A DNA stretch of 51,533 nucleotides, taken from positions 1 through 51,533 of the forward strand of contig CAZSJY010000004.1 in assembly GCA_964607375.1 (NCBI GenBank). Reading direction: 5' to 3'. This DNA comes from an uncultured bacterium. GTDB lineage: Bacteria > Fidelibacterota > Marinisomatia > SCGC-AAA003-L08 > JACNLC01. The translations under genes and the position numbers were made by a program. Position 1 is the stretch's first letter. Every line of letters begins with the position of its first letter. The notes below the pieces were generated by a model. The model did no database searches and was not told the DNA's origin. It worked only from the letters and a program-made list of their open reading frames with translations. This document shows, one piece after another, positions 23 to 51,315 of this stretch.

Positions 23-208
23 TTAGTTCTCCATTTCATTAGAATTTATGATTGAGAATATCTCCTCATCAGTTAGATTTGGAAATTGTTGTATGTATTT
101 GTTGTAAAGTAAGAACTCTGAAACAGTAAGGAAACCCTCATCAAATAGTGTTAGATAATCGTAGTAGTCAGAGAAGTTCTCGTCGGTGAAGTTTGATGAG
201 GAAACCAT
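23..208 (-). CDS. small acidic hypothetical protein (61 aa, MVSSSNFTDENF...), no alanine; part of a putative mobile element
   Basis: ATG at 208, stop at 23-25 followed 2 nt later by the next ATG; its 5' end is repeated at 51160-51198. Confidence 0.45.
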   Translation of the reverse strand: MVSSSNFTDENFSDYYDYLTLFDEGFLTVSEFLLYNKYIQQFPNLTDEEIFSIINSNEMEN

Positions 209-338
209 CAGAAAATAATTGTTGTAAATTTGTTGTAAATCCGAGATATATCGACGGGAAAACTGTGTTTTGTTGTAAAAATGTTGTGATTTATAAAAAA
301 ATAACTCCAATGATAAGTTACTGTTATCATTGGAGTTA
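170..338. repeat. tRNA-3'-associated repeat, copy 1, with tandem TTGTTGTAAA motifs and terminal hairpin
   Basis: Manual alignment to 51160-51315 gives about 90% identity; motifs at 219-229, 230-240, 270-280, 281-290. Confidence 0.92.
295..338 (-). terminator. intrinsic terminator downstream of tRNA-Asn
   Basis: Perfect 15 bp stem TAACTCCAATGATAA/TTATCATTGGAGTTA (302-338) followed by a T run on the minus strand. Confidence 0.8.
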
Positions 339-341
339 CAG

Positions 342-415
342 CTCCGGTGGTAGGACTCGAACCTACGACACGTGGATTAACAGTCCACTGCTCTAACCGA
401 CTGAGCTACACCGGA
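342..415 (-). tRNA. tRNA-Asn(GTT), CCA not encoded
   Basis: Reverse complement TCCGGTG-TAGCTCAGTCGGTTAGAGC-A-GTGGA CTGTTAA TCCAC...GGTTCGAGTCC-TACCACCGGAG folds as a cloverleaf. Confidence 0.97.
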
Positions 416-553
416 AATATTATACCAATCAAAGCTTGATAATTTAGGGCATATTTAACATTTAGAGACAACTACTATTTTGAATAATTATTTATATTTT
501 TTGACAGCATGTAACTAACTTTGCATTATTTTTTTGTTTAAAATTTCTATTAT

Positions 554-964: not shown

Positions 965-965
965 G

Positions 966-3577: not shown

Positions 3578-3578
3578 A

Positions 3579-4160: not shown

Positions 4161-4299
4161 AATAGAATCAAGTAATGTGTGGAATTAATCCTTACCTTAC
4201 CTGTAAATTTAAATAATTCGTAAATATTCTAACTGCAATTTTTTAAAAAAACAATGGTTTAACTTGGGAGATTATCCATCATACCCATAAATTTACTCT

Positions 4300-6215: not shown

Positions 6216-6223
6216 TAATTGAA

Positions 6224-7513: not shown

Positions 7514-7555
7514 TAGTTAATTTAAACAATTTGTATTTTTTCCGATTAGTTGATC

Positions 7556-10728: not shown

Positions 10729-10734
10729 TTGTCG

Positions 10735-13008: not shown

Positions 13009-15054
13009 ATGTCACACATTAATAATAATCCATTTTTACATGAAAGTAATTTACCATATAATGTAGTTCCATTTGATAAAATAGAAACTGATCACTTTAT
13101 ACCAGCGATACAAGAAAAAATGGCAATCGCTAGGAGCAATATAGAACAAATTAAAAACAATTCCGATGAACCTAATTTTGAAAACACAATATTAGCTTTG
13201 GAAACTTGTTCAGAAGATTTGGGTACGATCGTTGAAACTTATTTCAATCTATATAGTGCTGAATCAGACGGCAAATTTAAGGAATTAGCACAACAAATCT
13301 CTCCTATGATGGCTGATTTTAGTAACAATATTATTTTAGATGAAACTCTATATAAAAAGGTTAAAGAAGTCTATGATTCAATGGCTTCTTCCGATTTGAC
13401 AAATGAACAGATACGATTAACCGAAAAAAAATATCTTGGATTTGTTAGAAATGGGGCTAACCTAGATGAAACTAAAAAAACTAGACTAAGGACTCTGAAT
13501 CAAGAATTATCCAAATTAGGTCCACAATATTCTAAGAATTTGCTTGATGCCACAAACGATTTTGAGCTTCATATTACCGATAAGAGTAAATTATCAGGAA
13601 TTCCTGAAATTGCGTTATCTTCAGCCGAGAATATTGCAAAGCAAAAAGGTAAAGATGGGGGCTGGTTGTTTACACTTCAAATGCCGAGTTGGCTACCAAT
13701 TGTTAAATATGCTGAGAATCGTAAACTCCGGGAGACTATTTTAAAGGAACTTGGGACATTAGCAGTTGATGGGAAATTTGACAATAGCAATATTCTAAAG
13801 AGAATAGCAAAACTAAAGCACGAAAAAGCTGTACTTCTAGGTTTTAACTCTCACGCAGATTATACACTTCAAGAACGGATGGCAGAAAAGACCGAAGCTG
13901 TAATGGACTTTTTAAGTACTGTAAAATCCACAGCTATAGCAACAGCAAAAAAAGATGTTGAAGAAGTTAGACTACTTGCAAAAGAATTAGATGGAATTGA
14001 TGATTTTAGTTCTTGGGATTTTTCATACTACTCAGAAAAATTAAAACAAAAGAAGTTCGATTATGATGGAGAAAAACTAAGACCATATTTTAAAATTGAA
14101 AATGTATTCGATGGAATATTTACAATTGCTTACAAATTGTATGGATTAAATTTCAAGAAATTATCTGAAATTCCTGTATATCACCCTGATGTAACTGTCT
14201 ATGAAGTCAAAAATGAAAATGGTAAATTTGTTGGTCTATTATATATGGACATGTTCCCGAGAGAAACCAAACGTAACGGAGCATGGATGACTACTTTCAG
14301 AGGTCAAGGACTCTATAAGGGTGAAGTTATCAGACCCCATGTATCTATTGTTACCAATTTAACTCCATCCACACAGGATAAACCTTCTTTGTTAGACATG
14401 TCAGAAGTTAGGACTATTTTCCATGAATTTGGACATGCATTACATGGATTGTTGTCAGATTGCACTTACCAATCACTCGCAAGTCCGAATGTATTTTGGG
14501 ATTTTGTTGAGTTACCATCTCAAATTATGGAGAACTGGCTCTTAGAAAAGGAAGCACTCGATATTTTTGCAAAGCATTATGAGACTGGTGATTCAATTCC
14601 ACAAGAACAAATCGAAAAAATCAAAAAGGTTCAACATTTTAATGCGGGCTATCAAAGTATTCGACAGATTACGCTTGGTCTGATAGATATGGCTTGGCAT
14701 ACACAGGATACCTCCTTTGTTGAAAGTATTACTGATTTTGAGAACTCTATTGTTGAAGAATTGAGGTTATTACCAAGGATAGAAGGAGCTAATACTTCAT
14801 GTAGCTTTGCTCATATTTTCGGAGGAGGATATTCTGCTGGTTATTATTCTTACAAATGGGCTGAAGTACTGGATGCAGATGCTTTTGAGTATTTTAAAGA
14901 AAATGGAATTTTCAACAGGGATGTTGCTAATTCGTTCAACAACAATATTTTATCAAAAGGAAATACTGACCATCCAATGGACTTATATATAAAATTCCGA
15001 GGTAAAAAACCAGACCCTAATGCACTTTTTAGGAGAGATGGGTTTATTAGATAG
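13009..15054 (+). CDS. M3 family peptidase (peptidyl-dipeptidase Dcp / oligopeptidase A-like), no signal peptide seen
   Basis: FHEFGHALH, WDFVELPSQ, GYSAGYYSYKWAEVLDAD, NNPFL start. Confidence 0.92.
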   Translation: MSHINNNPFLHESNLPYNVVPFDKIETDHFIPAIQEKMAIARSNIEQIKNNSDEPNFENTILALETCSEDLGTIVETYFNLYSAESDGKFKELAQQISPMMADFSNNIILDETLYKKVKEVYDSMASSDLTNEQIRLTEKKYLGFVRNGANLDETKKTRLRTLNQELSKLGPQYSKNLLDATNDFELHITDKSKLSGIPEIALSSAENIAKQKGKDGGWLFTLQMPSWLPIVKYAENRKLRETILKELGTLAVDGKFDNSNILKRIAKLKHEKAVLLGFNSHADYTLQERMAEKTEAVMDFLSTVKSTAIATAKKDVEEVRLLAKELDGIDDFSSWDFSYYSEKLKQKKFDYDGEKLRPYFKIENVFDGIFTIAYKLYGLNFKKLSEIPVYHPDVTVYEVKNENGKFVGLLYMDMFPRETKRNGAWMTTFRGQGLYKGEVIRPHVSIVTNLTPSTQDKPSLLDMSEVRTIFHEFGHALHGLLSDCTYQSLASPNVFWDFVELPSQIMENWLLEKEALDIFAKHYETGDSIPQEQIEKIKKVQHFNAGYQSIRQITLGLIDMAWHTQDTSFVESITDFENSIVEELRLLPRIEGANTSCSFAHIFGGGYSAGYYSYKWAEVLDADAFEYFKENGIFNRDVANSFNNNILSKGNTDHPMDLYIKFRGKKPDPNALFRRDGFIR

Positions 15055-19166: not shown

Positions 19167-19223
19167 TGAGAGATTGTATTAGAATCCTTTGATAAACCAT
19201 TAAAATGGTTAAAACAAACCGAA

Positions 19224-33265: not shown

Positions 33266-33277
33266 AAAGGATAATAT

Positions 33278-34733: not shown

Positions 34734-34760
34734 TAACTTGAAGTTTTCATCTGTAATGAT

Positions 34761-36811: not shown

Positions 36812-36860
36812 AGTATAAATTAAATATCCTTTACTGTTATATATCAAAATAAAATATGTT

Positions 36861-36876
36861 TATTAGAGTATTCTAA
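36861..36876. promoter_or_regulatory. putative operator TATTAGAGTATTCTAA, copy 1
   Basis: TTAGA-GTAT-TCTAA dyad ending 85 nt before ATG 36961; identical copy at 40190-40205. Confidence 0.65.
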
Positions 36877-36960
36877 TTTTTATTTATCATCTGCTAAAAG
36901 ATACATTTGTTTAGGATATATATGAAACATATTAATCATTAATTAGAAAAAGGAAAAAAA

Positions 36961-39900
36961 ATGAAGAATTATAAAATTACATTTAGTTACAAAGTGATAC
37001 CTATGGTAGCTCTTTTAGGTATGTTAATTTCGTTTGTATATCCAGAACATAATTCTGGTTACAATTGTATGAATTGTCATTTTAACAATGGTCCGGGAGA
37101 TGCAGTGTTTGATTTTTCAGGAACAGTGTATTCCTCATCTCAGGGAGGTAGTCCAATGTCGGGTGTGACCGTGAGAATACAAGATAGCACAGGTCATATT
37201 TTTACAGAAAACACACATAATCCAACTGGAAATTTTTGGATGGAAACCGATGAAGATGACAGAGTAACTCCTGTCCCTCCTTATACAGCAACAGTTTCAA
37301 AGGATGGGGTCACAATTCCTATGGTATCTGCATTTTCTAATGGATCGTGTAATAGTTGTCACAATAGTAATATGAGGATATTCTTTGATGAAAACTACAA
37401 TAATGATCCTCCAACAGTAGTAATAGTTTCACCTGCAAATGGAGATAATTTTGAAATATCTGATATTGATGTAGAGATTTTATCAGAAAATATTACTGAT
37501 GGTGATTACTTTAATGCTTATATCGATGGTATTTTAGTAGGTACATTTTCTTCAACTGCATTTACATTGCAGGATATTTCTGATGGAGAACATAATCTCG
37601 AAGTAGCGATAGTTGAGAGTAACGGACAAGAATATGATAATCCTGAAGCAAGAGCAACAGTATTTTTTACGATAAATTCTTCCTCAACTTTGACAGTTGA
37701 TTATTTGACACAAATCCAGCCAATATTAAACAACAATTGTGTAAGTTGCCATAGTTCAAGCTGGGCTGCAGGGGGAGCGAGTTACGAAGATTATAATTCT
37801 ACAATTAACACTGGAGGTGTGGTACCTTTCGATCATTCAAGTAGTTTAATGTGGCAAGTTGTAGACAATGGAAGTATGCCTACTAGTTACAATTTAAGTA
37901 GTAGTGATATAGATTTGATATCTCAATGGATTGATGAGGGAGCATTGCCTGAAGGCTCGATTTCTTCTCCTCCAATTTCTGGTTTTACATCAGATATAAC
38001 AAATGGTAATGCACCCTTATCAGTTAGCTTTACCGATATTTCTATTGTTGGCGATGCTCCAATCATTTCTTGGGATTGGGAATTTGGTGATGGTGGTACG
38101 AGTGTAGAACAAAATCCTACATATGTTTATTCAAATGTAGGTACTTTTTCCGTTAGTTTAACAGTTGTTGACGAAAATGGTTTATCAGACTCAATTACAG
38201 AAATTGACTTTATCACAGTTACTGAAGAACAAGTGAATCCAAACTACCCAAATTGGTCTGTTAATCCACCCTCGTTTGAATTTAATATGACCTTAACCAG
38301 TGTTATATTCTTTAATGGAGAAGAGTCATTTGATGAAAGTGATTTACTTGGTGCATTTGTAGATGGAGAATGCAGAGGTTTAGCGTCACCGTCATTTTTC
38401 CCCGTTACAGAACACTATACAATAAATTTAATAATTTACAGTAATCTGACAACAGGAGAAGAAATTACATTCAGAGCTTATGATTATTCGGAAGATATTG
38501 TTTTTGAAACAGTAACAGAAACAATTAGTTTTAATGTAAATGATAATCAAGGAAACGATATAAGCCCAATTGAACTTCACGCCATCTCTGAACAAATGGA
38601 TTTGATAACATTAATAATACCTCAGGAAACTGCATTTACTGGTGATGACATTTCACTCGGAATTGCACTTGACTTACCACCTGATGTTTTTTTTAATGCA
38701 ATTGAACTTAATATAAATGGTTATTTTGATGGTTTGGATTTAGTTTCAATAACTACAGAAAATAGTTTATCTTCAAGCTGGGAAGTAGAATATAATGAAG
38801 TTGATGAGGAGTTATTAGTTGCTCTATACGGTTCGAGTTCTATTGAATCCAGTGGAACCTTGTGTTATCTCGATTTTGTAATTGAGGAATCGGCTGACGG
38901 TTTTATTCCGATTAATATATCGGATGCAATTATTGATGAAACTTTGTATGATATAAACTTAGTTTCAGGTGGTGTAGAAGTTGAAGGTGGTGTTCCTCCT
39001 GTTGCAGATTTCTCTGCTACGCCTGTAACTGGTTTTGGAGAATTGGATGTTCAATTTACAAATCTGTCTGATTTAGGAAATGGTGACATAATTTCATATC
39101 AATGGGATTTTGGAGATGGTGGAACTTCGAACGAAGAAGATCCATCGCATACTTATTATGAGATAGGTATCTACTCCGTAACTTTGGAAGTTAGTACGAC
39201 TTTTGGTTACGATGAAGTTACTCAAACAGACTTAATTATTCTGGGAATTGCAGGGGATGTAAGTTTGAATGGAGAGGTTCACGCTTACGATGCAGCATTA
39301 ATTCTGCAATACCTAGTTGATGAACAAGAACTATCGCCTCTTCAGTTATTCAATTCTGATGTTAGCTTGAACAATGTAGTAACTGCATACGACGCTTCTT
39401 TGATAGCTAAATTCGTGGTTGAATTAATTGATGATCTTCCATATCCTGAAGTATTATCAGCTGATGGTGTGATTTCTATGAATGATCTTGAGATTTATTC
39501 TCAACAGGATCAGATTTCTATACCATTGTATTTGACGGAAGGTGAGAATATTTTGTCATTCGAAACAGAAATCGAATTTGATTCTGAATTGTTGAATCTA
39601 GAAAATATTATTTGGCCAAATCAAGAAGATGGTTTTATGATTGAGATTAATGAAGATGATGGTATAATCAAAATTGCAGGAGCTGGCCAAACTCCCTATG
39701 GAAATGAGGAAATATTTGCTGAGTTAATATTTGAAAGTGAAAGTGAATTTATTGGAGAAGCTGTAGTAAATATTTCATCTCATCGTTGGAATGAAGAAGA
39801 AATTCAGGAAGATATTACTCAATCAATATTAACGTTTGTACTTGACATATCAAGTAATGAAATTCCTAATGATTTTCAACTATCTAAAATATATCCCAAT

Positions 39901-40131
39901 CCTTTCAATCCAACTGCAACCATTGAGTACTTATTACCAATTCAAACTAGTATTGAGTTAGTAATATTCGATTTACAAGGATTGCAAGTGCAGGAAATTT
40001 GGAATGGTAAACAAGTTGCAGGTATCCACCAAGTTTCCATTGATGGTTCTGAAATGACAAGTGGTGTATATTTTGTAAGGATGACAACTCCATATAATAG
40101 CCAAATACAGAAACTTGTTTTAATGAAGTAA
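36961..40131 (+). CDS. secreted triheme cytochrome c with 2 PKD, 2 cohesin-like, dockerin and C-terminal sorting domains
   Basis: Signal peptide; CMNCH, CNSCH, CVSCH; two WxFGDG; GDVSLNGEVHAYDA..SDVSLNNVVTAYDA; YPNPFNP..KLVLMK. Confidence 0.85.
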   Translation: MKNYKITFSYKVIPMVALLGMLISFVYPEHNSGYNCMNCHFNNGPGDAVFDFSGTVYSSSQGGSPMSGVTVRIQDSTGHIFTENTHNPTGNFWMETDEDDRVTPVPPYTATVSKDGVTIPMVSAFSNGSCNSCHNSNMRIFFDENYNNDPPTVVIVSPANGDNFEISDIDVEILSENITDGDYFNAYIDGILVGTFSSTAFTLQDISDGEHNLEVAIVESNGQEYDNPEARATVFFTINSSSTLTVDYLTQIQPILNNNCVSCHSSSWAAGGASYEDYNSTINTGGVVPFDHSSSLMWQVVDNGSMPTSYNLSSSDIDLISQWIDEGALPEGSISSPPISGFTSDITNGNAPLSVSFTDISIVGDAPIISWDWEFGDGGTSVEQNPTYVYSNVGTFSVSLTVVDENGLSDSITEIDFITVTEEQVNPNYPNWSVNPPSFEFNMTLTSVIFFNGEESFDESDLLGAFVDGECRGLASPSFFPVTEHYTINLIIYSNLTTGEEITFRAYDYSEDIVFETVTETISFNVNDNQGNDISPIELHAISEQMDLITLIIPQETAFTGDDISLGIALDLPPDVFFNAIELNINGYFDGLDLVSITTENSLSSSWEVEYNEVDEELLVALYGSSSIESSGTLCYLDFVIEESADGFIPINISDAIIDETLYDINLVSGGVEVEGGVPPVADFSATPVTGFGELDVQFTNLSDLGNGDIISYQWDFGDGGTSNEEDPSHTYYEIGIYSVTLEVSTTFGYDEVTQTDLIILGIAGDVSLNGEVHAYDAALILQYLVDEQELSPLQLFNSDVSLNNVVTAYDASLIAKFVVELIDDLPYPEVLSADGVISMNDLEIYSQQDQISIPLYLTEGENILSFETEIEFDSELLNLENIIWPNQEDGFMIEINEDDGIIKIAGAGQTPYGNEEIFAELIFESESEFIGEAVVNISSHRWNEEEIQEDITQSILTFVLDISSNEIPNDFQLSKIYPNPFNPTATIEYLLPIQTSIELVIFDLQGLQVQEIWNGKQVAGIHQVSIDGSEMTSGVYFVRMTTPYNSQIQKLVLMK

Positions 40132-40152
40132 ACTTCAAGTAACAATTTTAAA

Positions 40153-40190
40153 AATAGAAAAACGCTCTCATTGGAGAGCGTTTTTCTATT
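40153..40190 (+). terminator. intrinsic terminator, potentially bidirectional
   Basis: Perfect 17 bp stem AATAGAAAAACGCTCTC-attg-GAGAGCGTTTTTCTATT. Confidence 0.85.
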
Positions 40191-40205
40191 ATTAGAGTAT
40201 TCTAA
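40190..40205. promoter_or_regulatory. putative operator TATTAGAGTATTCTAA, copy 2
   Basis: Identical to 36861-36876; ends 89 nt before ATG 40294. Confidence 0.65.
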
Positions 40206-40293
40206 CTGTTTTCACTAAAATGTATTTAATATTTTACGAATGAGAATACAATGAGTATTCATTTGAGTAAATCAAAAAAAGAAGGGGAAAAAA

Positions 40294-43200
40294 ATGAAAA
40301 GAGTAATGATAATATTAACAATATTGAGTGCTTACTTTTGTGTAAGTTTCGCTCAATCTGAGGAATTTGAACCTCGGCAACCACATTATTCAGGATACAA
40401 TTGCTCTAATTGTCACAGTTTTGAATTTGGAGGAACTGTATATACTGATGCAAGTGGGGGTTCACCGGTTTCAGGTGTTCAAGTGCAAATTACTGGAAGT
40501 AATGGGAGTACAGCAAACTTTACTACTAATTCTTATGGCAATTTTTGGACATCAAGTTCTTCACCAACACCTCCATATACTACTTCAATTAGTTATAACG
40601 GAAATACTATCTCGATGGTTTCCAGTTTTTCTGATGGGTCGTGCAATGGGTGTCATTCTAATGGATCACGGATTTATGTTCCACCGACACAAAGTCCACC
40701 AACATCAAACTTTACAGGAAATCCAACAAGTGGTGATGTACCTTTGTTAGTCAATTTTACAGATCAATCTTCACAAGGTAGTAGTGCAATAACCAGTTGG
40801 AGTTGGAATTTTGGAGATGGTGGCTCTAGTTCTATTCAGAATCCAACACATACTTACAATTCTGTGGGGACTTTTTCAGTAACTTTAATGGTTACCGATG
40901 CAAGTGGTTTATCTGATTCATTTACTAGAACAAGTTACATAACCGTAAATCAGGCACAGTTTGCACCTCCAACTGCAGAATTTTCAGCAAATCCAATTAC
41001 TGGAAATGCACCTTTGTCAGTGAGTTTTGTCGATTTATCAACACCAGGTGATGGAGCTATCACAAATTGGAATTGGAGTTTTGGAGATGGTGGTTCTAGT
41101 TCTATTCAGAATCCAACACATACTTACAATTTAGCTGGTACTTTCAATGTTAGTTTAACTGTAACTGATTCTAATGGTTTGTCAGATACATTTAATCAAA
41201 CAAATCTAATAACAGTTAATGGAGAACCTACACCAGGTGAGTATGTTTTGATAGCTTGGAGCAAGGGTGGAATGCATTGTATGAATTCTAATTTTGATAA
41301 TTTTATGATTCTTCCACCTGCTAATACTATACAAGCACAATTAATCTATAAAACAGACAATCAATTCCCGGATATTGTTACAGATGGTTATAGAATTGAA
41401 TATTCAATACCGGGGAATACATATTCTGTAGGAAAAACCAATTTTTGGGATTTTGCAAGTGATATATTTGGCACAATGATACCAGAAAATATTGGACTAA
41501 CAGGTAATGGAATGACTGGTGAAATGGAAATTTCAGATAATTATTTTTTAGCTTCTGCAATTCCAATAACACCATTTACTGATTCAGATTGGAATACTTT
41601 AGATCCATATCAATTGATTCATTTGGAAGCATATTCTAATGCAACTGGTGAATTAGTTGCTTCATCTGATGTAACAATTCCTGTAAGTACAGAAATGCAC
41701 TGCGTGGATTGTCATGGTTCTGAAACAAATATATTATTTGACCACGAAGACGAATTTGATCCTAACAATACACCGATTGTTTGTGGAAATTGTCATGCTC
41801 AAAATCCATTAGGATTTCCTGGTATTCCAGAAGCACTCTCATTTTCATATCAAATGCACAAAAAACATGCGAGTGAAGTTGGTCCTGAAAATTCCATTTC
41901 ATCTTGTTATAAATGTCATCCGGGTCCAGAAACTCAGTGTTTGAGGGGTACAATGAATGAAGACTTTGGAATGGTTTGTCAAGATTGCCACGGTACTATG
42001 AATGATGTATGGCAATCTATTGAAAATGGTCGAGAACCTTGGGTAGATGAACCCACCTGTGGGGAATGCCATGGTGAAAACTATGCTGAAGAACCAAATA
42101 CGCTTTACCAAGCATCAAAGGGACACGGAGATATGTTCTGTTCAGCTTGTCATGGTAGTACACATGCTATCTATCCAACTCGAGAAGCAAATGACAACTT
42201 GCAAAGCATAGCACTTCAAGGGCATGCTGGCACAATATCAGAGTGCACAGTTTGTCACTCAAGTGTACCTGGTGGTGCTGGTCCGCACGGATCAGATAAT
42301 CCACCAGACTCACCACCTCCACCCACTAATTTAACTGCTGTAGGAGAAGTAGGAGATTATGATATGGATGGAATTTTTGACAATGCAATTAAATGGTCTT
42401 GGAATCATCAAGATTATACTACTTCTGTAGATTGTAATGGTGATGAAATTCCTGGATGGTGGATTGATGAATTTGTTGGAGATGGAAATTGTGATGTACT
42501 TTTTGATTGCGAAGGATTTGATTTTGATGGAGGAGATTGCTCCGACTTTGAAAATTGTGGGACTTCGTTGGTAATCACAAATACCGGAGATTATGACGAT
42601 GATGGGGAGGAAAATGGTCCTTGTTGGTCAGATAACTCTGCATATTTCTATTTTAGCTGGGAAGGTGGTTGTTTGGCAACAACTCTATATTATAGCGGAG
42701 CTCAAGATGGAATGGATTTAACATCTTACGGATTTACAGATGGTTTTTATTTTTATGGTTTTGATAATGATGTAACAGAAGACTTCACTTTAGATTTTGA
42801 CGACGGTTCAAGTGCAAATCAAACGGCAACTTCAGGTATCTGTGATGCTACAGAATGTGCCGAAGGATATATCCAAGATTGTGTTGATGAAGACTGTATT
42901 ATAGAAAATTGGATTGGAGATGGATATTGTGATGGCATTTCTCAAGAGTGGGGAGCTGATCTTTGTTGTTACGATCTGGATGGTGGAGATTGTACTGAGG
43001 AAGAATGTGCTGATGATGATAGATCTATTGGTGAATCTTCAAAATTTATTAGTGCATCAAAGTTAGATTCGCAAACTGTATCTAAACTTTCAAAAGTGAA
43101 TAGAAATAGAACTCTTAATAATCGTTATGATTATGTTACCTTTGAAATCTCTGTAACTTGGGATGGTGGTGGAAATACTTGGGTTACATCCGGAACAGAA

Positions 43201-44445
43201 TTTTTGGTTTACGGATTTGAACAAGGTGAGATTGGTTGTGCTTCTGTAGTCGCAGTTGGGAATGATGGGACTGTGTCAGAATCTACACCAGAAATATGTG
43301 CAAGTGCTGGTGATCCAGCAGGTGAAACAGAAATTTCCATTGATATGAGTGATGGTTGGAACTGGTTCTCTGTGAATGTTGAAGCAGAAGATATGAGTTT
43401 AGATGCTGTTCTTTTATCACTCGGTAGTGATGCAACTTTGATTAAAAACCAAACCGGTTTTGCAACATATTACGACGACTTTGGATGGTATGGTTTAGAT
43501 TTTATAGATGTAACAAGTATGTATATGATTTTCTTGGAAAATTCAAGTGAACTTGTTTTTGCAGGAACTGCAGTAGATTATGAAAACACACCAATTAGTT
43601 TATCTGAAGGTTGGAACTGGATTGGCTATTTACCACAAGCATCTAATAATCTAGACGAAGCTCTTGATAGTATTGGAGAAAGTGCTTCTATGATAAAAAG
43701 TCAAACTGCTTTTGCTACTTACTATGAAGGTTTTGGTTGGTATGGAATGGATTCTCTCGATCCAGGTGTTGGCTATATGTTAATGATGTCAGAATCAGCA
43801 GAATTAATTTATTCTTCACCGACTACTCTGATTAAGAATGTTGCTGAATTTACAGAACTATACTGGACGGTAAATCCACATCAATATGAGAATAATATGA
43901 CAATGACAGCATACTTTAATGAAATTGGAAAAAGTGATGTTCTTGCAGCGTTTGTAGGTGACGAAATCAGAGGTGTTACTGGTGCAACTTACTTTCCACC
44001 AATTGGGGCACATACTTTCAATCTGATGATATATGGTAATCCAGGTGAAGAAATCCGATTTGTTGTTTATCAATCTTACAAGGATGTTGAAGTTGATATT
44101 GAAGAGAATATTACCTTCGTTAACAATGGTAATTTGGGGAATGATTTTGAACCAGTTATGTTAAAAGTGAAAGTAATTCCGATAGCTTATAATCTTTCTC
44201 AGAATTATCCTAATCCATTCAATCCAACTACTACGATTGAATACGATTTACCACAGGAAACATTCATTACAATTGATATCTACAATGTAATGGGTCAGCG
44301 GATTGATGTATTATTAAACAGCAATCAAGTTGAGGGATGTCATAAAGTTGTATGGAATGCAGATAGTTATCCAAGTGGTATCTATTTTGTTAGAATGGTG
44401 ACAGAAACATTTGAAATGTCAAGGAAGATGCTTCTTGTGAAGTAA
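40294..44445 (+). CDS. secreted nine-heme cytochrome c with 2 PKD, LNR-like Cys repeats, GWNW repeats and C-terminal sorting domain
   Basis: Signal peptide; 9 CxxCH counted; GDGxCD..DGGDC twice; NYPNPFNP..KMLLVK. Confidence 0.87.
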   Translation: MKRVMIILTILSAYFCVSFAQSEEFEPRQPHYSGYNCSNCHSFEFGGTVYTDASGGSPVSGVQVQITGSNGSTANFTTNSYGNFWTSSSSPTPPYTTSISYNGNTISMVSSFSDGSCNGCHSNGSRIYVPPTQSPPTSNFTGNPTSGDVPLLVNFTDQSSQGSSAITSWSWNFGDGGSSSIQNPTHTYNSVGTFSVTLMVTDASGLSDSFTRTSYITVNQAQFAPPTAEFSANPITGNAPLSVSFVDLSTPGDGAITNWNWSFGDGGSSSIQNPTHTYNLAGTFNVSLTVTDSNGLSDTFNQTNLITVNGEPTPGEYVLIAWSKGGMHCMNSNFDNFMILPPANTIQAQLIYKTDNQFPDIVTDGYRIEYSIPGNTYSVGKTNFWDFASDIFGTMIPENIGLTGNGMTGEMEISDNYFLASAIPITPFTDSDWNTLDPYQLIHLEAYSNATGELVASSDVTIPVSTEMHCVDCHGSETNILFDHEDEFDPNNTPIVCGNCHAQNPLGFPGIPEALSFSYQMHKKHASEVGPENSISSCYKCHPGPETQCLRGTMNEDFGMVCQDCHGTMNDVWQSIENGREPWVDEPTCGECHGENYAEEPNTLYQASKGHGDMFCSACHGSTHAIYPTREANDNLQSIALQGHAGTISECTVCHSSVPGGAGPHGSDNPPDSPPPPTNLTAVGEVGDYDMDGIFDNAIKWSWNHQDYTTSVDCNGDEIPGWWIDEFVGDGNCDVLFDCEGFDFDGGDCSDFENCGTSLVITNTGDYDDDGEENGPCWSDNSAYFYFSWEGGCLATTLYYSGAQDGMDLTSYGFTDGFYFYGFDNDVTEDFTLDFDDGSSANQTATSGICDATECAEGYIQDCVDEDCIIENWIGDGYCDGISQEWGADLCCYDLDGGDCTEEECADDDRSIGESSKFISASKLDSQTVSKLSKVNRNRTLNNRYDYVTFEISVTWDGGGNTWVTSGTEFLVYGFEQGEIGCASVVAVGNDGTVSESTPEICASAGDPAGETEISIDMSDGWNWFSVNVEAEDMSLDAVLLSLGSDATLIKNQTGFATYYDDFGWYGLDFIDVTSMYMIFLENSSELVFAGTAVDYENTPISLSEGWNWIGYLPQASNNLDEALDSIGESASMIKSQTAFATYYEGFGWYGMDSLDPGVGYMLMMSESAELIYSSPTTLIKNVAEFTELYWTVNPHQYENNMTMTAYFNEIGKSDVLAAFVGDEIRGVTGATYFPPIGAHTFNLMIYGNPGEEIRFVVYQSYKDVEVDIEENITFVNNGNLGNDFEPVMLKVKVIPIAYNLSQNYPNPFNPTTTIEYDLPQETFITIDIYNVMGQRIDVLLNSNQVEGCHKVVWNADSYPSGIYFVRMVTETFEMSRKMLLVK

Positions 44446-44458
44446 TCTGACTCAAGTA

Positions 44459-44496
44459 AAGAGAGTGGTAGGAAAACCTCCCCCTACCACTCTCTT
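44459..44496 (+). terminator. stem-loop after the nine-heme gene (leaky terminator or RNA stabiliser)
   Basis: 14 bp stem AAGAGAGTGGTAGG/CCTACCACTCTCTT with a poor U tail. Confidence 0.6.
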
Positions 44497-44530
44497 ACTA
44501 CCTTTACCTCAATAATGGAAGGAGCTTTCA

Positions 44531-45004
44531 ATGTTAGTAAATGGAGAAAAAACTAAAGTCTTAGAAGAAATGGAAATCTTCAAAGGAATTTCTAAAGGAG
44601 ATTTGGTTAGAATATCAGATATATCATCTGAAGTTAAATTCCCGAAGAAAAAAGTTGTATTTGAAGTAGGTGACATAGGTGATTATCTAATGGTAATTAT
44701 TCGTGGAAAGGTTAAAGTTCATCGCAATGGAACAATAATTACCAACCTTAGCGCAGGAGCATGTTTTGGTGAGATGTCTATCTTCAGTTAAGAAAAGAGA
44801 TCTGCATCAATTACAACAGAAAGTGAATGCGTTTTATTGAAAATTTCGCAAGATGATTTTTTGCAAGTTCTATCACATAATACTCCATTGTTGAAAAATA
44901 TAATTGGTGTGTTAAGTTCTCGAATTAGAGAAACAAATGATCTCTTATTTCAAAAAATGAGAGATTGTACAGAAATTTGGGAAAAGGGGACAGCACTACA
45001 TTAG
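44531..45004 (+). pseudogene. stand-alone cyclic-nucleotide-binding domain protein interrupted by in-frame TAA (44789-44791)
   Basis: FGEMSIFS*EKRSASITTESECVLLKISQDDF... stays open to TAG at 45002-45004; GGAG RBS. Confidence 0.85.
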
Positions 45005-45019
45005 TAAAAAAAACAATAT

Positions 45020-45952
45020 ATGAATGTTCATGATAATAATAAAATGATGTTAACTTTCGATATCTATGAGGAAGAATATTTGAAAGTTTTCCACAAATTT
45101 ATTTTGATATTATTTTCATTGGCATTACTTACTGTTTCTTTTTGGTTTATTCAAAATGCAGGTGAATATTATTTAATTCCTCTTATCTCTCGGCCACAAC
45201 ATATTGCTCATAATCTGTGGAAACCTAGCGGAATATATGGACATACAGTAGGCATCATTGGCACATTAATGATGGTTTTTATGTTATTGTATTCAATAAG
45301 AAAACGCATAAAATTAATGAGAAGATGGGGCGCATTACCAAATTGGTTAAATTACCACATTGCACTTGGCATTGCTGGACCATTACTAATTACTTTCCAT
45401 ACTTCCTTGAAACTTGGTGGACTTGTTTCAGTAGCATATTGGGCTATGGTTTCTGTAGTTGTTAGTGGATTTATTGGAAGATATATTTACATTCAAATTC
45501 CGCACAATAGCGATGGTAATGAGATTTCATTATCAGAGCTCAAAGAGACTTACAGTAATTTTATAAAATCATTAACAGAGGAATTTAATATCTCTGAGAA
45601 AAATATTAAGTTGATTGAAGAGAATCTCAACATAGATAAAATTTCTCAAAGTAGTTTAACCTCTATATTTTTCCTTTTATATTCAGATATTTTTGGATGG
45701 ATTAAATCTAAAAAAGAGTATAGTAGTCTAATCACGAGATTTGGAGTACCTATATCAAAAACAAAACAATTTAGGAAAATCCTAAAGAAAACTACTAAGA
45801 TATCTCGTCAAATTGCGTTTTGGAATTCTGCACAAAAATTATTTCATTATTGGCATGTGATTCATAAACCATTTGCCTATGCAATGACCTTAATTGTGAT
45901 TTTACATATCACGATTTCATTTATCTTTGGTTATACTGGGTGGTTTCTATGA
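45020..45952 (+). CDS. multi-pass membrane protein, ferric-reductase/cytochrome b-like (start may be TTG 45080)
   Basis: About 5 hydrophobic helices with His at WLNYHIALG, TFHTS, WHVIHKP, ILHITI. Confidence 0.7.
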   Translation: MNVHDNNKMMLTFDIYEEEYLKVFHKFILILFSLALLTVSFWFIQNAGEYYLIPLISRPQHIAHNLWKPSGIYGHTVGIIGTLMMVFMLLYSIRKRIKLMRRWGALPNWLNYHIALGIAGPLLITFHTSLKLGGLVSVAYWAMVSVVVSGFIGRYIYIQIPHNSDGNEISLSELKETYSNFIKSLTEEFNISEKNIKLIEENLNIDKISQSSLTSIFFLLYSDIFGWIKSKKEYSSLITRFGVPISKTKQFRKILKKTTKISRQIAFWNSAQKLFHYWHVIHKPFAYAMTLIVILHITISFIFGYTGWFL

Positions 45953-47262
45953 ACCACGAGCCCATATTTACTTGGTTTCTTGGAATAATAATACTTCTTG
46001 CGTTTGTTATCCCATACATTTACAGTATTAGAAAAAAAGAAACTGAGACTAAACTTAGATTAAAAAAGACCAAATTGTTAGGGCAAGATAAGCCATTTGT
46101 CCAACATCCTATTATAAATCGTTCGGTATGTATAGGGTGTGGTATTTGTGTAGATTCTTGTCCTGAAGGAGATGTTTTAGGATTATTGTATGGTCGGTCA
46201 ACAATTATTCATGGAAGCCATTGTGTTGGTCATGGACAGTGTGCTGCAAACTGCCCAGTAGGTGCTATTGGTGTTGGATTGGGGGATATTAGTGAAAGAG
46301 AAGATATTCCATTACTAACAGAAAACTACGAAACAAATATACCTGGAATCTATATTGTAGGTGAATTAAGTGGTTTTGCGTTAATTAGAAATGCTATTGA
46401 ACATGGTGTGACAGCTGTTGGTCGAATTGCTCAAAATATGAAGAGTCATTCAAAAGAAATGTATGATATTGTAATTGTTGGAGCAGGACCTGCAGGCTTG
46501 GCTGCTGCACTCAAAGCTAAAGAACTTAAACTCAATTACATTGTGATTGACCAATACGAGCCTGGTGGAACAATTTTACATTACCCAAGAAGAAAACTCA
46601 CTTTAGTACAAAGAGTTGCACTTCCACTTTATGGCGAATTAAAGAAATATGAGTACTCAAAAGAAGAACTATTAGACATTTGGACTTCGCTCATCAAAAC
46701 TCATACTCTTAACCTCCAAACAAACTGCAAACTACTAAATGTTACACAACCAAATGGACATTTTTCTGCACGGACAACAGAAGGTGAGTTAAAGACTAAA
46801 AATGTTATTTTAGCACTTGGAAGACGAGGAACTCCTAATAAATTGAATATCCCTGGTGAAGAAACAAGTAAGGTAATGTACAAATTGATTGACGCAGATA
46901 CTTTCAAAGAACAGAATATTATAGTAGTTGGAGGTGGGGATAGTGCGATTGAAGCAGCTATTGGTTTGGCAAGCCAACAAGGAAATCAAGTTTTAGTATC
47001 TTATAGGAAAGCTAATTTTTTCAGACTAAAAGCTCGAAACGAAACAAATCTAGAGAAAATGATGAATGAAAAAAGACTCTCTGTGCTATTCAATTCTAAT
47101 CTTAAAGAAATTAAAACAAAGGATGTCAATATAGATTATTCAGGTGAAACTATCTCAAAACCTAACGATTTTGTATTTGTATTTTCTGGCGGGGAAGTAC
47201 CATTTCCTATACTCCATTCGTTGGGAATTGAATTCGGAAAAAAAATCATACCTAAAGCTTAG
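45940..47262 (+). CDS. membrane-anchored 2x[Fe-S] ferredoxin fused to a thioredoxin-reductase-like FAD/NADPH oxidoreductase
   Basis: N-terminal TM; CIGCGICVDSCP, CVGHGQCAANCP; GAGPAG; GGGDSA and YRK; no CxxC redox pair in the flavoprotein part. Confidence 0.87.
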   Translation: MVSMNHEPIFTWFLGIIILLAFVIPYIYSIRKKETETKLRLKKTKLLGQDKPFVQHPIINRSVCIGCGICVDSCPEGDVLGLLYGRSTIIHGSHCVGHGQCAANCPVGAIGVGLGDISEREDIPLLTENYETNIPGIYIVGELSGFALIRNAIEHGVTAVGRIAQNMKSHSKEMYDIVIVGAGPAGLAAALKAKELKLNYIVIDQYEPGGTILHYPRRKLTLVQRVALPLYGELKKYEYSKEELLDIWTSLIKTHTLNLQTNCKLLNVTQPNGHFSARTTEGELKTKNVILALGRRGTPNKLNIPGEETSKVMYKLIDADTFKEQNIIVVGGGDSAIEAAIGLASQQGNQVLVSYRKANFFRLKARNETNLEKMMNEKRLSVLFNSNLKEIKTKDVNIDYSGETISKPNDFVFVFSGGEVPFPILHSLGIEFGKKIIPKA

Positions 47263-48662
47263 TGGTTAAAAGAGTGAAACACTCTATCATATTACATACT
47301 ATTTTATCGATTGTCTATTCTCAAATATCACCAGGACCCTTAGCTGAATTACATACTCATTTAGAAGGAATTAATAATTGCACTCAATGCCATGAACTAG
47401 GAAAGAAAGAATTAAATAGTGGATGTTTAGATTGCCACACTCCTTTAAAAACTCTAATTGAGAATAAGGTAGGATATCACAAAGACAAGTATGATAATTG
47501 TGAAAAGTGTCACCTAGATCATTATGGCTTTGAATTTAATATGATATTTTGGCCTGATAGTATTCACAATTTTAACCATTCTGAAGCAAATTATGAACTA
47601 AATGGTAAACATCAAAAACTTGATTGTAAACAGTGTCATAACCAAAAATATATTGTTAAAGATGAGGTTATAAATTGGTACAAAGAAAATCAATCAATAA
47701 ATGGACTAAATCGCTCTTTTTTGGGGTTATCACAAAAGTGTTTCACTTGTCATAAGGATTATCATCAAAAACAAGTATCCATAGAATGTCAGAATTGCCA
47801 CGATACTCAAAATTGGAAAAATGCGATTCAAACTTACAATCATGATAAATCGGAATACATACTAGATGGAGCACATATATCTGTAGAATGCGAGAAATGT
47901 CATATTCCTTTTGATAATAATACTCAAATGTGGAATCTTACGATGTTGCAATATGAAAACTGTTTATCTTGTCATGAAGATATTCATTTGTCAAGTTATG
48001 GTAAAAATTGTAAAACTTGCCATTTTACTTCACATTGGACAAAAGAACTAAAGTACTTTGAACACGATTCAACTATGTATAAACTTCGAGGGAAACATAA
48101 AAATGTTGTTTGTCTTAAATGTCATAAAGAAAATGTGAGAGGTGAAAAGTTAGATTTCAAATCGTGTTCTTCTTGTCACATTGATGTACACAAAAAACAG
48201 TTTTCTAAGAAATTATGTGATGAATGCCATACTGTGGAGAGATTTTCTCCATCAACGTATACAATTAGAGATCATAATCAGTCTAAGTACAATCTTGAAG
48301 GTTCTCACATTGCAGTTAAGTGTGATGAATGTCATTTAACTGTAACAGCTGATTCCGCAAAAACAGTTCAATATAACTTTGAAGATCAAAGCTGTATTCA
48401 ATGCCATAAAGATATTCATCGAAATCAGTTTACAAAACACGAATCAGACCAATGTGAGCTTTGCCACAATACGAATTCATTTTCGATAGTTGAGATTGAT
48501 CATAATATTACTTCATACCCATTAGATGGAAAACACCAAAATGTTAATTGCAACGAATGTCATTTTACCATTGATGATGCAATAGGTTCTTTCGTCCAAT
48601 ATACGGGTTTCCCATATCGTTGTGAAGATTGCCATATACTTAAGGAACTAGAAACCAAATGA
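47262..48662 (+). CDS. 17-heme periplasmic cytochrome c (c7/c3-like repeats)
   Basis: 17 CxxCH counted; repeated H...Y.L.G.H..xCxxCH unit; signal peptide before QISPGPL. Confidence 0.92.
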   Translation: MVKRVKHSIILHTILSIVYSQISPGPLAELHTHLEGINNCTQCHELGKKELNSGCLDCHTPLKTLIENKVGYHKDKYDNCEKCHLDHYGFEFNMIFWPDSIHNFNHSEANYELNGKHQKLDCKQCHNQKYIVKDEVINWYKENQSINGLNRSFLGLSQKCFTCHKDYHQKQVSIECQNCHDTQNWKNAIQTYNHDKSEYILDGAHISVECEKCHIPFDNNTQMWNLTMLQYENCLSCHEDIHLSSYGKNCKTCHFTSHWTKELKYFEHDSTMYKLRGKHKNVVCLKCHKENVRGEKLDFKSCSSCHIDVHKKQFSKKLCDECHTVERFSPSTYTIRDHNQSKYNLEGSHIAVKCDECHLTVTADSAKTVQYNFEDQSCIQCHKDIHRNQFTKHESDQCELCHNTNSFSIVEIDHNITSYPLDGKHQNVNCNECHFTIDDAIGSFVQYTGFPYRCEDCHILKELETK

Positions 48663-49501
48663 AGTATTATAAACCATTTATCAGAAATTTTTTTCAACCT
48701 CGATGCATCATTTTTACAGTAATTATATTTCAAATATCAAATACTATACATTCTCAGATTATAGATTTAAACCTACCTTGTGCTGATTGCCATTCAACAA
48801 ATAGTTGGATACCTTTGAGGGCAGATATGCAATTCAATCACGACACTACGAAATTTCCACTAACAGGAAACCACCAAATAGCAGATTGCATTCAATGCCA
48901 CAATGGAACAACAGTTCAAGAAGAACATCAGTTCAAATCTGCCGAAGAAGAGTGTTTTAGTTGTCATTTGGATATTCACTTTTCTGGATTTGGAGATGAC
49001 TGTGAAAGATGCCACAATACATTTAGCTGGAATACAAAAAACTGGGTAATAAAACACGACTTTACTTTATTTCCATTATCTGGAGCACATTCAAGGTTGG
49101 AATGTGATGAATGCCATTTTGAAGGATTTACAATATTACCTAACAATCTATCAACAGACTGTTTGAGTTGTCATAACCAGAATTTTGCAAATTTCCCAGA
49201 TGTTCATGGAGGTAATAATAATTGTATTCAATGTCATAATACTAGAAGCTGGAAGCCTATTGATATGTCACACCACGATTTAATTTTTCCTATTTATTCA
49301 AGTAAACATCGCGGTGAATGGTCTGATTGTTCTGATTGTCATGCCAATAATTCTTACGAATATCAGAACATTTCTTGTGGCCTTAATGGAATCTGTCACG
49401 ACCACAGAAAAAGTAAAATGGACAAGGAACACCGTGACATAAATGGATACTTATACCAAGATCTTGAGTGTTTAAGCTGTCATCCAAACGGTAGTGAATA
49501 A
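48659..49501 (+). CDS. multiheme cytochrome c (9 CxxCH plus 1 CX5CH)
   Basis: Motifs counted in the translation; FPL.G.H repeats; N-terminal hydrophobic segment. Confidence 0.92.
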   Translation: MKYYKPFIRNFFQPRCIIFTVIIFQISNTIHSQIIDLNLPCADCHSTNSWIPLRADMQFNHDTTKFPLTGNHQIADCIQCHNGTTVQEEHQFKSAEEECFSCHLDIHFSGFGDDCERCHNTFSWNTKNWVIKHDFTLFPLSGAHSRLECDECHFEGFTILPNNLSTDCLSCHNQNFANFPDVHGGNNNCIQCHNTRSWKPIDMSHHDLIFPIYSSKHRGEWSDCSDCHANNSYEYQNISCGLNGICHDHRKSKMDKEHRDINGYLYQDLECLSCHPNGSE

Positions 49502-51024
49502 TGTATAGAATTGCATTATATACTGTATTTTTGGTTTCACTATCTTTTCCACAAACCAACAAAATCGTTAGCATTCACGGTCACATTACATATCTAACTT
49601 TAGAAAATGTTTATTGTGATATTGGAACCAATAAAAGTGTAACTCCAAACGATACATTACGAGTTTTTCGTCGTAATGAAGAAATTGGGACTTTGGTTGT
49701 TCAACAAACTTCGAGCAATTCTTCTATTTGTAATTCTCTAATACCAATTGAAGTTTATCAGTTGGGAGATAGGGTATTATTAGAAAAAATTGTTATTCAA
49801 GATATCATTAGTGACTTTGTTACTGATAAACCTGAAGTAACTGAGGAAAAACAAACATATAAATTTAATCATGATGGTAGATTTTCTTTTAGCTATAGTT
49901 ATGAGAAATTTAGTGATGAACTTGTTGACCACCACTTTTCCAATTATTTCAGGTATAAAGCTGGAGTTAATAACCTAAAAAACACACAATTATTCATCTA
50001 TGGTAAGAGTAATAATATTTCAAACAAACTGATTTTGTATCAAATGCAATTAGCTGTTAAAACCAAATCAAAAAAACTGTCTATATACTTCGGGAGATTA
50101 TTCCCAAAGGATTTTATAAGCATTGGTATTATTGATGGTCTCTTAATTGATAACAGAGTATCCCCAAATACCTCTTTTGGTTTCATAGCAGGATTTCAAC
50201 CTAATGTATATTTGATTCCTAGCATTGACAGATGGCATCATGGAATTACGATGAAAATAGAGCGGTTCAATAGAACAATTAGATTAAATGGATATTTGGC
50301 AATAGTCCAACAAATAGTAGATAAGCGAATTGATAAAGAAATTATTTATACAAGATTTAATGGAAAAATCAATTCAAATATGAATGTCTCTTTGAGACAA
50401 ACACTTGAAATATATCATTCTGATGATAAAATAGATTTTAACTCTTTGAAACTTGTTTCAAATCAGGTTTTGGTTAAAATGAGACTTTGGAAGAACATTT
50501 TACTACGGTCTCGAATTTCTTATAGTGAGCAACCAATTAACTTTGTAACAGAGTCAAATTATTTAGACACACTTATTACTACTGAATTTAGAACTGGTTG
50601 GTTTAGTTCAGTATCATATCAACACCATAAATTAGGTAGGTTTCAAACCGGAGTGAATTTACGATATGATTCAAGGGAGAAATTTTTGGCGAGAATGTTA
50701 ATGATGTTTTATAATTCTAATGCTATAAAAGATAGTTATTTTATCAGCTTCAAAAGTTACTACATAAAAAATCTGATAACCACAGGTGTTCGTAATTCGA
50801 TTGGTTGTTCGTTTACAGCAAAACTATTTTCGATTCATACTGATTATGAACATTTCATATATGGATATGGAAATAATTTGAGTGACTATCAACAACATAT
50901 TTTATCAATAAACGGTTATCTAAAAATGTCGAATAAATTAACCACAACCATATCAGTTGATTTAGTAATGGACAAAAATAATACCAGTGTGAATTTTCAT
51001 AACAATATATCTTATAGATTTTAA
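49501..51024 (+). CDS. predicted outer-membrane beta-barrel with small N-terminal domain
   Basis: Signal peptide, alternating amphipathic strands rich in aromatics, C-terminal SYRF; TAATG coupling to the cytochrome gene. Confidence 0.65.
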   Translation: MYRIALYTVFLVSLSFPQTNKIVSIHGHITYLTLENVYCDIGTNKSVTPNDTLRVFRRNEEIGTLVVQQTSSNSSICNSLIPIEVYQLGDRVLLEKIVIQDIISDFVTDKPEVTEEKQTYKFNHDGRFSFSYSYEKFSDELVDHHFSNYFRYKAGVNNLKNTQLFIYGKSNNISNKLILYQMQLAVKTKSKKLSIYFGRLFPKDFISIGIIDGLLIDNRVSPNTSFGFIAGFQPNVYLIPSIDRWHHGITMKIERFNRTIRLNGYLAIVQQIVDKRIDKEIIYTRFNGKINSNMNVSLRQTLEIYHSDDKIDFNSLKLVSNQVLVKMRLWKNILLRSRISYSEQPINFVTESNYLDTLITTEFRTGWFSSVSYQHHKLGRFQTGVNLRYDSREKFLARMLMMFYNSNAIKDSYFISFKSYYIKNLITTGVRNSIGCSFTAKLFSIHTDYEHFIYGYGNNLSDYQQHILSINGYLKMSNKLTTTISVDLVMDKNNTSVNFHNNISYRF

Positions 51025-51159
51025 CTTAAAACCTTTAACAAAAGCACATTATATAGTGTAGTTGATCGTAGGCTTATCCATTTCAACTTCCTTGTAAAAT
51101 AACTTGAATACAACTATATTGCTTATCGCAATTGAAGAAAATCAATTAGATACAAAATA

Positions 51160-51315
51160 AGAGAAGTTCTCGTCGGCGCAGTTTGATGAAGAAATCATCA
51201 CAAAATAATTGTTGTAAATCTAAGAAATATCGACGGGGAAACAGTGTTTGTTGTAAAAATGTTGTGATTTACAAAAAAATAACTCCAACGATAAGTTGCT
51301 TTATCATTGGAGTTA
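51160..51315. repeat. tRNA-3'-associated repeat, copy 2 (degenerate, truncated)
   Basis: Aligns to 170-338 with loss of one 11 bp TTGTTGTAAAT unit and about 13 substitutions. Confidence 0.92.
51273..51315 (-). terminator. intrinsic terminator downstream of tRNA-Phe
   Basis: TAACTCCAACGATAA/TTATCATTGGAGTTA stem followed by a T run on the minus strand. Confidence 0.75.

Follow-up and report, generated by a model that had tools for sequence, protein, structure and literature searches.

Why does the same stretch of some 160 base pairs (bp) stand directly behind two different tRNA genes of one bacterial genome? The question is raised by contig CAZSJY010000004.1 of an uncultured marine bacterium of the phylum Fidelibacterota (assembly GCA_964607375.1; 72 contigs, 1.66 Mb, 34% GC). 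The window analysed here is this whole contig (C4), 51,533 nucleotides (nt) in length; one copy of the repeat follows its tRNA-Asn gene, near the left end, and the other its tRNA-Phe gene, near the right end. We consider it highly probable that the repeat is the integrase-distal attachment (att) arm of a family of tyrosine-integrase islands that insert into tRNA genes, that the copy at tRNA-Asn belongs to a live island and the copy at tRNA-Phe is the stump of a relative, and that the change of target was recent.

Judging by their acceptor stems, both tRNA genes were called one base too long by ARAGORN, and their true discriminators are G342 (Asn) and A51319 (Phe). On the tRNA strand, the junctions with the repeat read G/CTG/TAACTCC and A/CAC/TAACTCC, respectively. 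The two copies (170-338 and 51160-51315) are identical in 143 of 169 alignment columns (84.6%), or in 143 of 156 (91.7%) if gaps are disregarded, and differ at 13 aligned positions and in 13 gapped columns, with one gap of 11 nt. Homology between them begins with the first base of a terminator stem, at +4, and extends into a small open reading frame (ORF), whose first 13 codons are common to both copies before the sequences diverge. Outside the repeat, the adjoining 3' parts of the tRNA genes agree at 28 of 45 positions, positions +2 to +3 at none of two, and the sequences beyond the repeat at 72 of 176; the base at +1 is C in both copies and, at tRNA-Asn, belongs to a 45-bp repeat described below. 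A BLAST search of the entire 1.66-Mb assembly returned these two copies only, the second with an E-value of 1.4e-48. In both, a hairpin of 15–16 bp is followed by a run of T (−19.7 and −19.1 kcal/mol, z around −7), and none of 200 shuffled sequences folds as well. Furthermore, the motif TTGTTGTAA occurs seven times in the window, six of them inside the two arms, where 1.42 occurrences are expected and none of 100 shuffles reaches seven. An earlier, sequence-only reading of the window had described an element of about 160 bp and about 90% identity, located 3 nt past the discriminators of the two tRNAs and made up of a terminator, tandem motifs and the start of a small ORF, and it had given the same bases, CTG and CAC, before TAACTCC; all of this is borne out.

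The other end of the presumed island was found by searching the assembly with the left end of the window. An exact copy (45/45) of window 341-385, the 3' part of the tRNA-Asn gene, lies on another contig, C46, at positions 13713-13757. Next to it come four TGTTGTA motifs, two in reverse and two in forward orientation, and after these an ORF of 394 amino acids (aa; C46:13891-15072) that matches PF00589 (1.2e-16) and PF13102 (5.5e-9). Two further PF00589 matches exist in the assembly, in open frames of 308 and 317 aa that we regard as Xer-like because of their size; of the three, only the ORF on C46 is not of Xer size. Likewise, clusters of at least three TGTTGTA motifs within 200 nt exist in only two places of the assembly, namely at window 87-277 (five) and at C46:13799-13860 (four). 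The orientation of the 45-bp fragment fits an island between the right end of C46 and the left end of the window, and it also fits a metagenomic contig from run X5, considered below, that joins the C46 flank to the tRNA. We infer that a single insertion into tRNA-Asn ends with the left 340 nt of the window on one side and with the right 2 kb of C46 on the other. The visible parts of this island have GC contents of 27.5% and 30.6%, as against 32–34% in the flanks.

Because the 45-bp duplicate lies beside the integrase gene, the insertion must have occurred inside the tRNA gene and not after its 3' end. The identity block starts 2 nt before the anticodon loop, as do the tRNA fragments in four related loci (L049, L051, L055 and L061), which suggests that the crossover region is the anticodon loop. 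Two ideas of the sequence-only reading fall with this finding: that the element targets tRNA 3' ends by position, and that identity of the att core with one tRNA is lacking, since this identity is present as the block from the anticodon loop to +1. That the repeat appears to set in at +4 reflects the start of the arm's non-tRNA portion, the terminator stem, at this point. The recombinase that it proposed to seek beyond the left end of the window, by contrast, exists as the 394-aa integrase.

Assembled from these parts, the island would begin at the chromosome with the displaced 45-bp tRNA-Asn fragment, followed by arm motifs, the integrase gene, a gene of 76 aa and the unassembled cargo, and would continue from there with a gene of 61 aa, further arm motifs, the terminator and the rebuilt tRNA-Asn gene to the chromosome on the other side. 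Integration at the anticodon loop, presumably by way of a circular intermediate, would swap the 3' part of the tRNA for the island's own copy, so that the DNA directly after the tRNA is island DNA. The arm would thus provide the new terminator of the tRNA, the repeated TTGTTGTAA sites and, for the first island gene, both promoter and start. That the hairpin and T run terminate the rebuilt tRNA is suggested by the computed structure. The TTGTTGTAAA repeats, found in arrays on either arm, are most plausibly arm-type sites that the integrase would bind to build the recombination complex, because they are enriched, lie on both sides of the core and co-vary with the integrase clade. In the simplest reading, the 3-nt offset between tRNA and repeat is functional as well: the joint must keep both the tRNA and the hairpin whole, leaving only a few bases. 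An interpretation of the linker as a decayed CCA is not favoured, as only its first C is kept in each copy, even though the tRNA-Asn gene on contig C51 of the congener G008 encodes CCA; in the genome under study, neither the island-supplied end of tRNA-Asn nor the displaced fragment does.

The assembly itself breaks inside the island. No other contig of the assembly overlaps the left end of the window, and metagenomic contigs run just 21 and 34 nt past its start before they end. We read this as a branch point within the island, beyond which the cargo varies. Such variable cargo would explain the break at the left end of the window, for which the island would thereby account.

To which tRNA genes does this integrase family belong? 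A protein collection holds one 99%-identical entry for the integrase and relatives at 77%, 68% and below. When metagenomes were scanned with a ten-sequence alignment, 70 stretches matched, and 22 of these could be confirmed as loci. Upstream of the integrase gene, four of these (L049, L051, L055 and L061) carry a displaced tRNA-Phe 3' half, 45–46 nt long and ending in the anticodon loop, and one (L053) carries half of a tRNA with a CAT anticodon. Ten loci have a 19-nt core at this position that resembles the tRNA-Phe anticodon arm, one (L054) has nothing in 269 nt, and six are cut too short to tell. The closest integrases are found at L049 (76% identity to the Asn integrase) and L051 (68%). 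With increasing distance of the integrases, the arm motif shifts as well, from TTGTTGTAA in the near clade to TTGTTGC in L053 and ATGTAACA in the group at about 40% identity. A quick maximum-likelihood tree was computed from 24 rows, without G214, which had not been extracted, and without L052 and L070, whose sequences were too short. It places the Asn integrase and that of L049 as sisters (SH-aLRT, an approximate likelihood ratio test, 89), and the two belong to a four-member clade (99) for which the known targets are tRNA-Phe. The integrase-proximal arms of C46, L049 and L051 align up to the anticodon stem (99 of 141 columns between C46 and L049) and contain the same two reverse and two forward motifs. 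Since displaced halves of tRNA-Phe adjoin the nearest integrases, and the Asn integrase is nested within this group, these comparisons indicate that the use of tRNA-Phe is ancestral and that of tRNA-Asn derived, and that the family has switched its tRNA, as the sequence-only reading had allowed for. A sample of the phylum is uninformative on targets: integrase relatives occur in 4 of 400 other genomes, at 31–37% identity, and no tRNA is found within their loci of 3–4 kb.

The copy behind tRNA-Phe would then be the remnant of a closely related island whose att site carried the 3' half of tRNA-Phe, and of which the rest has been deleted. It ends inside the small gene, directly after the 13 common codons, and borders redox genes with homologues in other genomes of the family. 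Elsewhere in the assembly, there is no tRNA-Phe fragment (searched with seeds of 14 and 16 nt) and no further integrase. The hairpin has been retained, with one A-to-G change that leaves a G-U pair. We read the copy as a deletion relic that still terminates tRNA-Phe. Its inner border is also a break in synteny with G008, as would suit a deletion or rearrangement that had one endpoint in the former island. The proposal of a fuller copy at Asn and a scar at Phe therefore holds. Given that the stump and the Asn arm are 92% identical without gaps, and the integrase genes of L049 and C46 only 77%, the parent of the stump should have been a very near sibling of the Asn island. The latter would be derived by recent retargeting, with no difference outside the tRNA-derived cassette, which reaches from the anticodon loop to +1..+3.

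The distribution of the arm in related genomes speaks for mobility. It is absent from all eight genomes of the family and from all 73 genomes of the order searched with blastn; four of the latter gave matches of 28–44 nt, which on inspection proved to lie in coding or AT-rich DNA without relation to the arm. A 21-mer taken from it matched the GTDB species-representative contigs, from which the genome's own records may be excluded, just twice, both times in unrelated coding DNA, and a 17-mer gave only three chance matches in viral contigs. Among 348 pattern matches of the integrase alignment in viral contigs, none was confirmed. In G008, the bodies of tRNA-Phe and tRNA-Asn are identical to those studied here, both are followed by different terminators, and neither the arm nor a tRNA-Asn fragment is present.

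Metagenomes supply further evidence. Eight marine runs from two studies contain the left end of the window, and four of these were examined in detail. Run X5 yielded a contig of 370 nt that consists of 312 nt, with the end matching the C46 flank, and of window 341-398, without a mismatch. This is what an empty site would look like, and we regard it as supportive, not conclusive. The occupied state is represented by the junction of flank, fragment and integrase in X1 and X6 and by that of arm and tRNA in X1 and X2; X5 and X6 have no cover on window 1-336 except for the Phe copy, which was not counted as evidence. The arm in X1 carries six substitutions at window 181-211, in the 5' region of the small gene, which read as two synonymous, two non-synonymous and two upstream changes. 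It constitutes a third allele, so several versions of the island appear to circulate. Taken together, the integrase, the 45-bp duplication, the X5 contig and the absence from relatives support the earlier suggestion that the repeat is the end of a mobile tyrosine-integrase family; what that suggestion had named as grounds against itself, namely matches at these two sites alone with no recombinase or cargo turnover, or an arm behind these tRNAs in all relatives as an ancestral duplicated terminator, is not what we find.

Other explanations have been considered, both for the copy at tRNA-Phe and for the element as a whole. The Phe copy might never have been a separate island but a copy of the arm at tRNA-Asn, transferred by ectopic recombination or gene conversion. 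The two tRNA genes are alike enough for this, with 23 of 30 positions shared in their 5' part and an identical GGACTG..AATCC anticodon arm, and there are only two copies of the repeat. However, conversion should have brought Asn bases into tRNA-Phe, which is identical to that of G008; the 13 substitutions and 13 gapped columns are too many for a recent copy; and a Phe-specific sibling is to be expected in any case, as the nearest integrases use tRNA-Phe. We therefore regard such copying as unlikely. Still less likely, the Phe copy could be the live end of a large island that spans window 33266-51159 with its PKD, multihaem cytochrome and type IX secretion system (T9SS) genes. In favour of this, tRNA-Phe of G008 is not followed by this 18-kb block, and synteny breaks at the inner border of the block (33265/33278). 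But the arm is cut within the conserved small gene, no integrase or tRNA-Phe fragment accompanies it in the assembly, and homologues of genes from the block occur at other places in G008 as well as in further genomes of the family. The genes of the block encode redox and surface proteins instead of mobility functions, and the GC content between the two elements, 33.7%, is that of the rest of the genome.

The remaining two alternatives concern the nature of the element. Since homology begins at +4 behind two different tRNAs, it could have been placed by position, 3 nt after any tRNA discriminator and without identity to an att core. The exact duplicate of tRNA-Asn at the other end, the tRNA-Phe fragments of similar length in the relatives, and the X5 contig, which restores flank and tRNA with nothing left over, make this very improbable. 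The least probable explanation is that of a native tRNA trailer and terminator module, duplicated in an ancestor and never mobile. Both copies are indeed good terminators, yet the module would have to be missing from all eight family and 73 order genomes and, apart from two unrelated coding matches, from the contigs scanned with the 21-mer; G008 has other terminators at both tRNAs, and an integrase, a duplication and a candidate empty site are present.

An island family that inserts at the anticodon loop and has changed from tRNA-Phe to tRNA-Asn thus remains the preferred interpretation, and several observations weigh against it. The interior of the island is absent from the assembly, and its two ends lie on different contigs and were joined by inference. 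No attP junction (the att site of the circular form) was seen, though no search was aimed at it. No Pfam arm-binding domain matched the integrase, whose N terminus is conserved across its family, and no excisionase was recognised. The tree has no bootstraps, and its outgroup of three genomes from the phylum is not monophyletic, with one member falling inside. No integrase-distal arm of a tRNA-Phe relative was recovered that could represent the presumed parent of the stump. The X5 contig passes the 45-bp repeat by only 13 nt into the 5' part of the tRNA, where the threshold for a bridge was 31, and comes from a single run, and the runs that best match the window may include the source sample. 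Lastly, G008 offers no clean empty site: window 341-33256 is collinear in this genome, and the C46 flank sits elsewhere, following the far end of that block.

Whether the two copies represent the before and after of one natural retargeting event is a tentative idea and on balance doubtful. In such an event, a tRNA-Phe island would have crossed over off-target in the anticodon loop of tRNA-Asn, by way of the common anticodon arm, and its integrase arm would thereby have been linked to the 3' half of tRNA-Asn. This half would then have been fused to the old terminator arm by a second, illegitimate joint, no more than 3 nt from the end of the tRNA, giving a new attP in which just the tRNA cassette was exchanged and to which the integrase subsequently adapted. 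In arms of 92% identity, the linker at +1..+3 (CTG versus CAC) agrees at one of three positions, and it would represent the scar of the second joint.

Islands in tRNA genes are textbook knowledge, and switches between tRNAs have mostly been inferred from distant comparisons without alignable flanks. In the present case, the arms at the two tRNAs of one genome are homologous, and it is the older of the two targets that the nearest integrases use. This also provides a testable set of substrates for the study of retargeting, with Asn and Phe cores in the same arms and integrases of 76% identity. In lambda-type (heterobivalent) integrases, short repeated motifs in both arms flank the core. The family described here resembles them in having motifs on both sides of the core, which co-vary with the integrase clade, and an integrase gene beside the core; it differs in that no known arm-binding Pfam domain or excisionase was recognised, and its motifs are putative binding sites.

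In its general build, the Asn island corresponds to the islands found with Islander, which, in the sections consulted, are described as having an intact tRNA gene at one end, a displaced 3' fragment at the other and a non-Xer integrase inside (Hudson, Lau and Williams, 2015; PMC4383910). The same elements recur here in the intact tRNA-Asn, the 45-bp fragment, the non-Xer integrase and a split gene that is restored by the island, and the repeat fits the class ‘anticodon centered attP site A’, to which 2083 of the 3919 islands in Table 1 of that work are assigned. Unlike those islands, the present one is split over two contigs with its interior missing, stems from an uncultured marine host, contains two small conserved genes without a Pfam family, and has a homologous arm surviving at a second tRNA. 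Integrase subfamilies are reported to keep their sublocation and to change the tRNA gene (Williams, 2002, as cited in PMC4383910 and in bioRxiv 10.1101/2020.11.02.365908). Similarly, the integrases described here are all associated with the anticodon loop, and the tRNA varies between Phe, Asn and one with a CAT anticodon. In a Klebsiella survey, islands with neighbouring integrases at different tRNA genes had, as far as the consulted text goes, no BLASTN similarity (bioRxiv 10.1101/2020.11.02.365908), whereas the arms at the two tRNAs are still about 92% identical here, which allows the exchanged segment to be narrowed down to the tRNA-derived cassette. Engineering the attP core of phage Ms6 towards other tRNA-Ala genes demonstrated that a change of the tRNA-like core alone redirects integration (PMC1762012, in the part consulted); that change was made in the laboratory, within one isoacceptor family and at the T loop, and the one considered here would be a natural change from Phe to Asn at the anticodon loop.

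Three loci with integrases of about 40% identity, L060, L063 and L067, display a different arrangement. A serine recombinase gene and a small gene are followed by arm motifs, the 19-nt core, which matches the tRNA-Phe anticodon arm at 16 of 19 positions, further arm motifs and the integrase gene; beyond it lie a 76-aa gene, a whole tRNA-Phe gene and genes for a DNA methylase, a ParB_N protein and a DUF5906 protein. Such an order suggests an element that is not integrated, with its attP intact and a tRNA-Phe of its own, of which L061 would be the integrated form. A short core combined with a whole tRNA-Phe gene also appears to parallel tRNA-dependent lysogeny, as outlined in the portion consulted of Guerrero-Bustamante and Hatfull (2024; PMC10865867), from which the Asn island differs: it rebuilds its tRNA in the classical manner and has no whole tRNA gene in its visible parts. 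Within the literature searched, we found no publication on this island family or on such islands in Marinimicrobia. It is a known kind of element and a new island family, apparently caught soon after retargeting, which is defined by its two conserved small genes and apparently resides in an uncultured marine lineage. The coordinates of its features are collected in Table 1.

Table 1. Features of the tRNA-Asn island, of the relic behind tRNA-Phe and of their surroundings. Positions refer to the window unless preceded by C46.
Feature	Position	Strand	Basis or remark
First codons of next island gene	1-20	-	ATG at 20, right after the stop of the small ORF; cut by contig end
Small conserved island gene, 61 aa	23-208	-	promoter and first 13 codons within the repeat
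TGTTGTA(A) motif array	87-289 (starts 87, 100, 220, 231, 271; degenerate copy 281-289)	+	proposed arm-type integrase sites
Repeat copy 1, probable integrase-distal att arm of tRNA-Asn island	170-338	-	alignment, BLAST
Promoter-like site (TTTACA, 16 nt, TATTTT)	212-239	-	consensus scan only; just upstream of the small gene, overlaps tandem motifs
Predicted intrinsic terminator for rebuilt tRNA-Asn	295-339 (16-bp stem 301-339; T run 295-300)	-	folding, scan
45-bp identity block (att core)	341-385	-	3' part of tRNA-Asn; begins 2 nt ahead of the anticodon loop, ends at +1
tRNA-Asn(GTT)	341-415	-	ARAGORN; sole tRNA-Asn gene found in the assembly
Repeat copy 2, probable truncated arm (relic) behind tRNA-Phe	51160-51315	-	alignment, BLAST, motifs, hairpin
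Arm motifs in Phe copy	51209-51217 and 51248-51256		on copy 51160-51315; motif scan
Predicted terminator hairpin of Phe copy	51280-51315	-	folding
tRNA-Phe(GAA)	51318-51391	-	ARAGORN; identical to tRNA-Phe of congener G008
76-aa gene	C46:15085-15315		adjoins integrase gene; recurs in 18 of 22 related loci
Last ORF of C46, first 22 codons	C46:15663-15728		at contig end; no Pfam match

The two small genes deserve separate mention. For the 61-aa gene, a word-indexed search of 5.8 billion proteins returned no relative but itself. By tblastx, relatives were detected in 9 of the 22 metagenomic loci, the five that were aligned being 41–50% identical to it. Because these relatives recur beside the att core, always on the side away from the integrase, it is evidently a real gene of the family. 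It has no Pfam match, and the 76-aa gene has sub-threshold matches only (E 0.057 and 0.19). AlphaFold models of both proteins are weak, with mean confidence (pLDDT) values of 64 for the 61-aa and 70 for the 76-aa protein, and Foldseek found nothing in the PDB at E <= 0.001. It would be a guess that one of the two is a directionality factor. The last ORF of C46 gave one tblastn match, at E = 0.1, to a ‘class I SAM-dependent DNA methyltransferase’, and we take its start to resemble the N terminus of HsdM; both are hints only. The body of an N6_Mtase (PF02384) was not found elsewhere in the bin.

Compared with G008, synteny breaks at all borders of the island and the stump, i.e. at window 341, 33265/33278 and 51160, at C46:13620 and at about 29–30 kb of contig C8. 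The DNA behind tRNA-Phe in G008 resembles C8:8594-27858, and that behind tRNA-Asn resembles C8:30199-42265; in the genome studied here, these two segments are contiguous on C8. The rearrangements between the two genomes appear to end at the two tRNA 3' ends.

Between the two elements, window 36961-51024 encodes two large PKD proteins, sorted by the T9SS and bearing cytochrome c motifs, one of which also has cohesin and dockerin domains. Behind them come a ferredoxin-flavoprotein, two multihaem cytochromes and two proteins that match no family. These genes may constitute a surface electron-transfer module. At the right end of the window, the last 55 nt or so (51480-51533) are a dispersed repeat with ten more matches, on contigs C31, C62 (two), C28, C49, C43, C14, C10, C52 and C45. 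Many of them fall exactly at contig ends, and the repeat probably breaks the assembly there.

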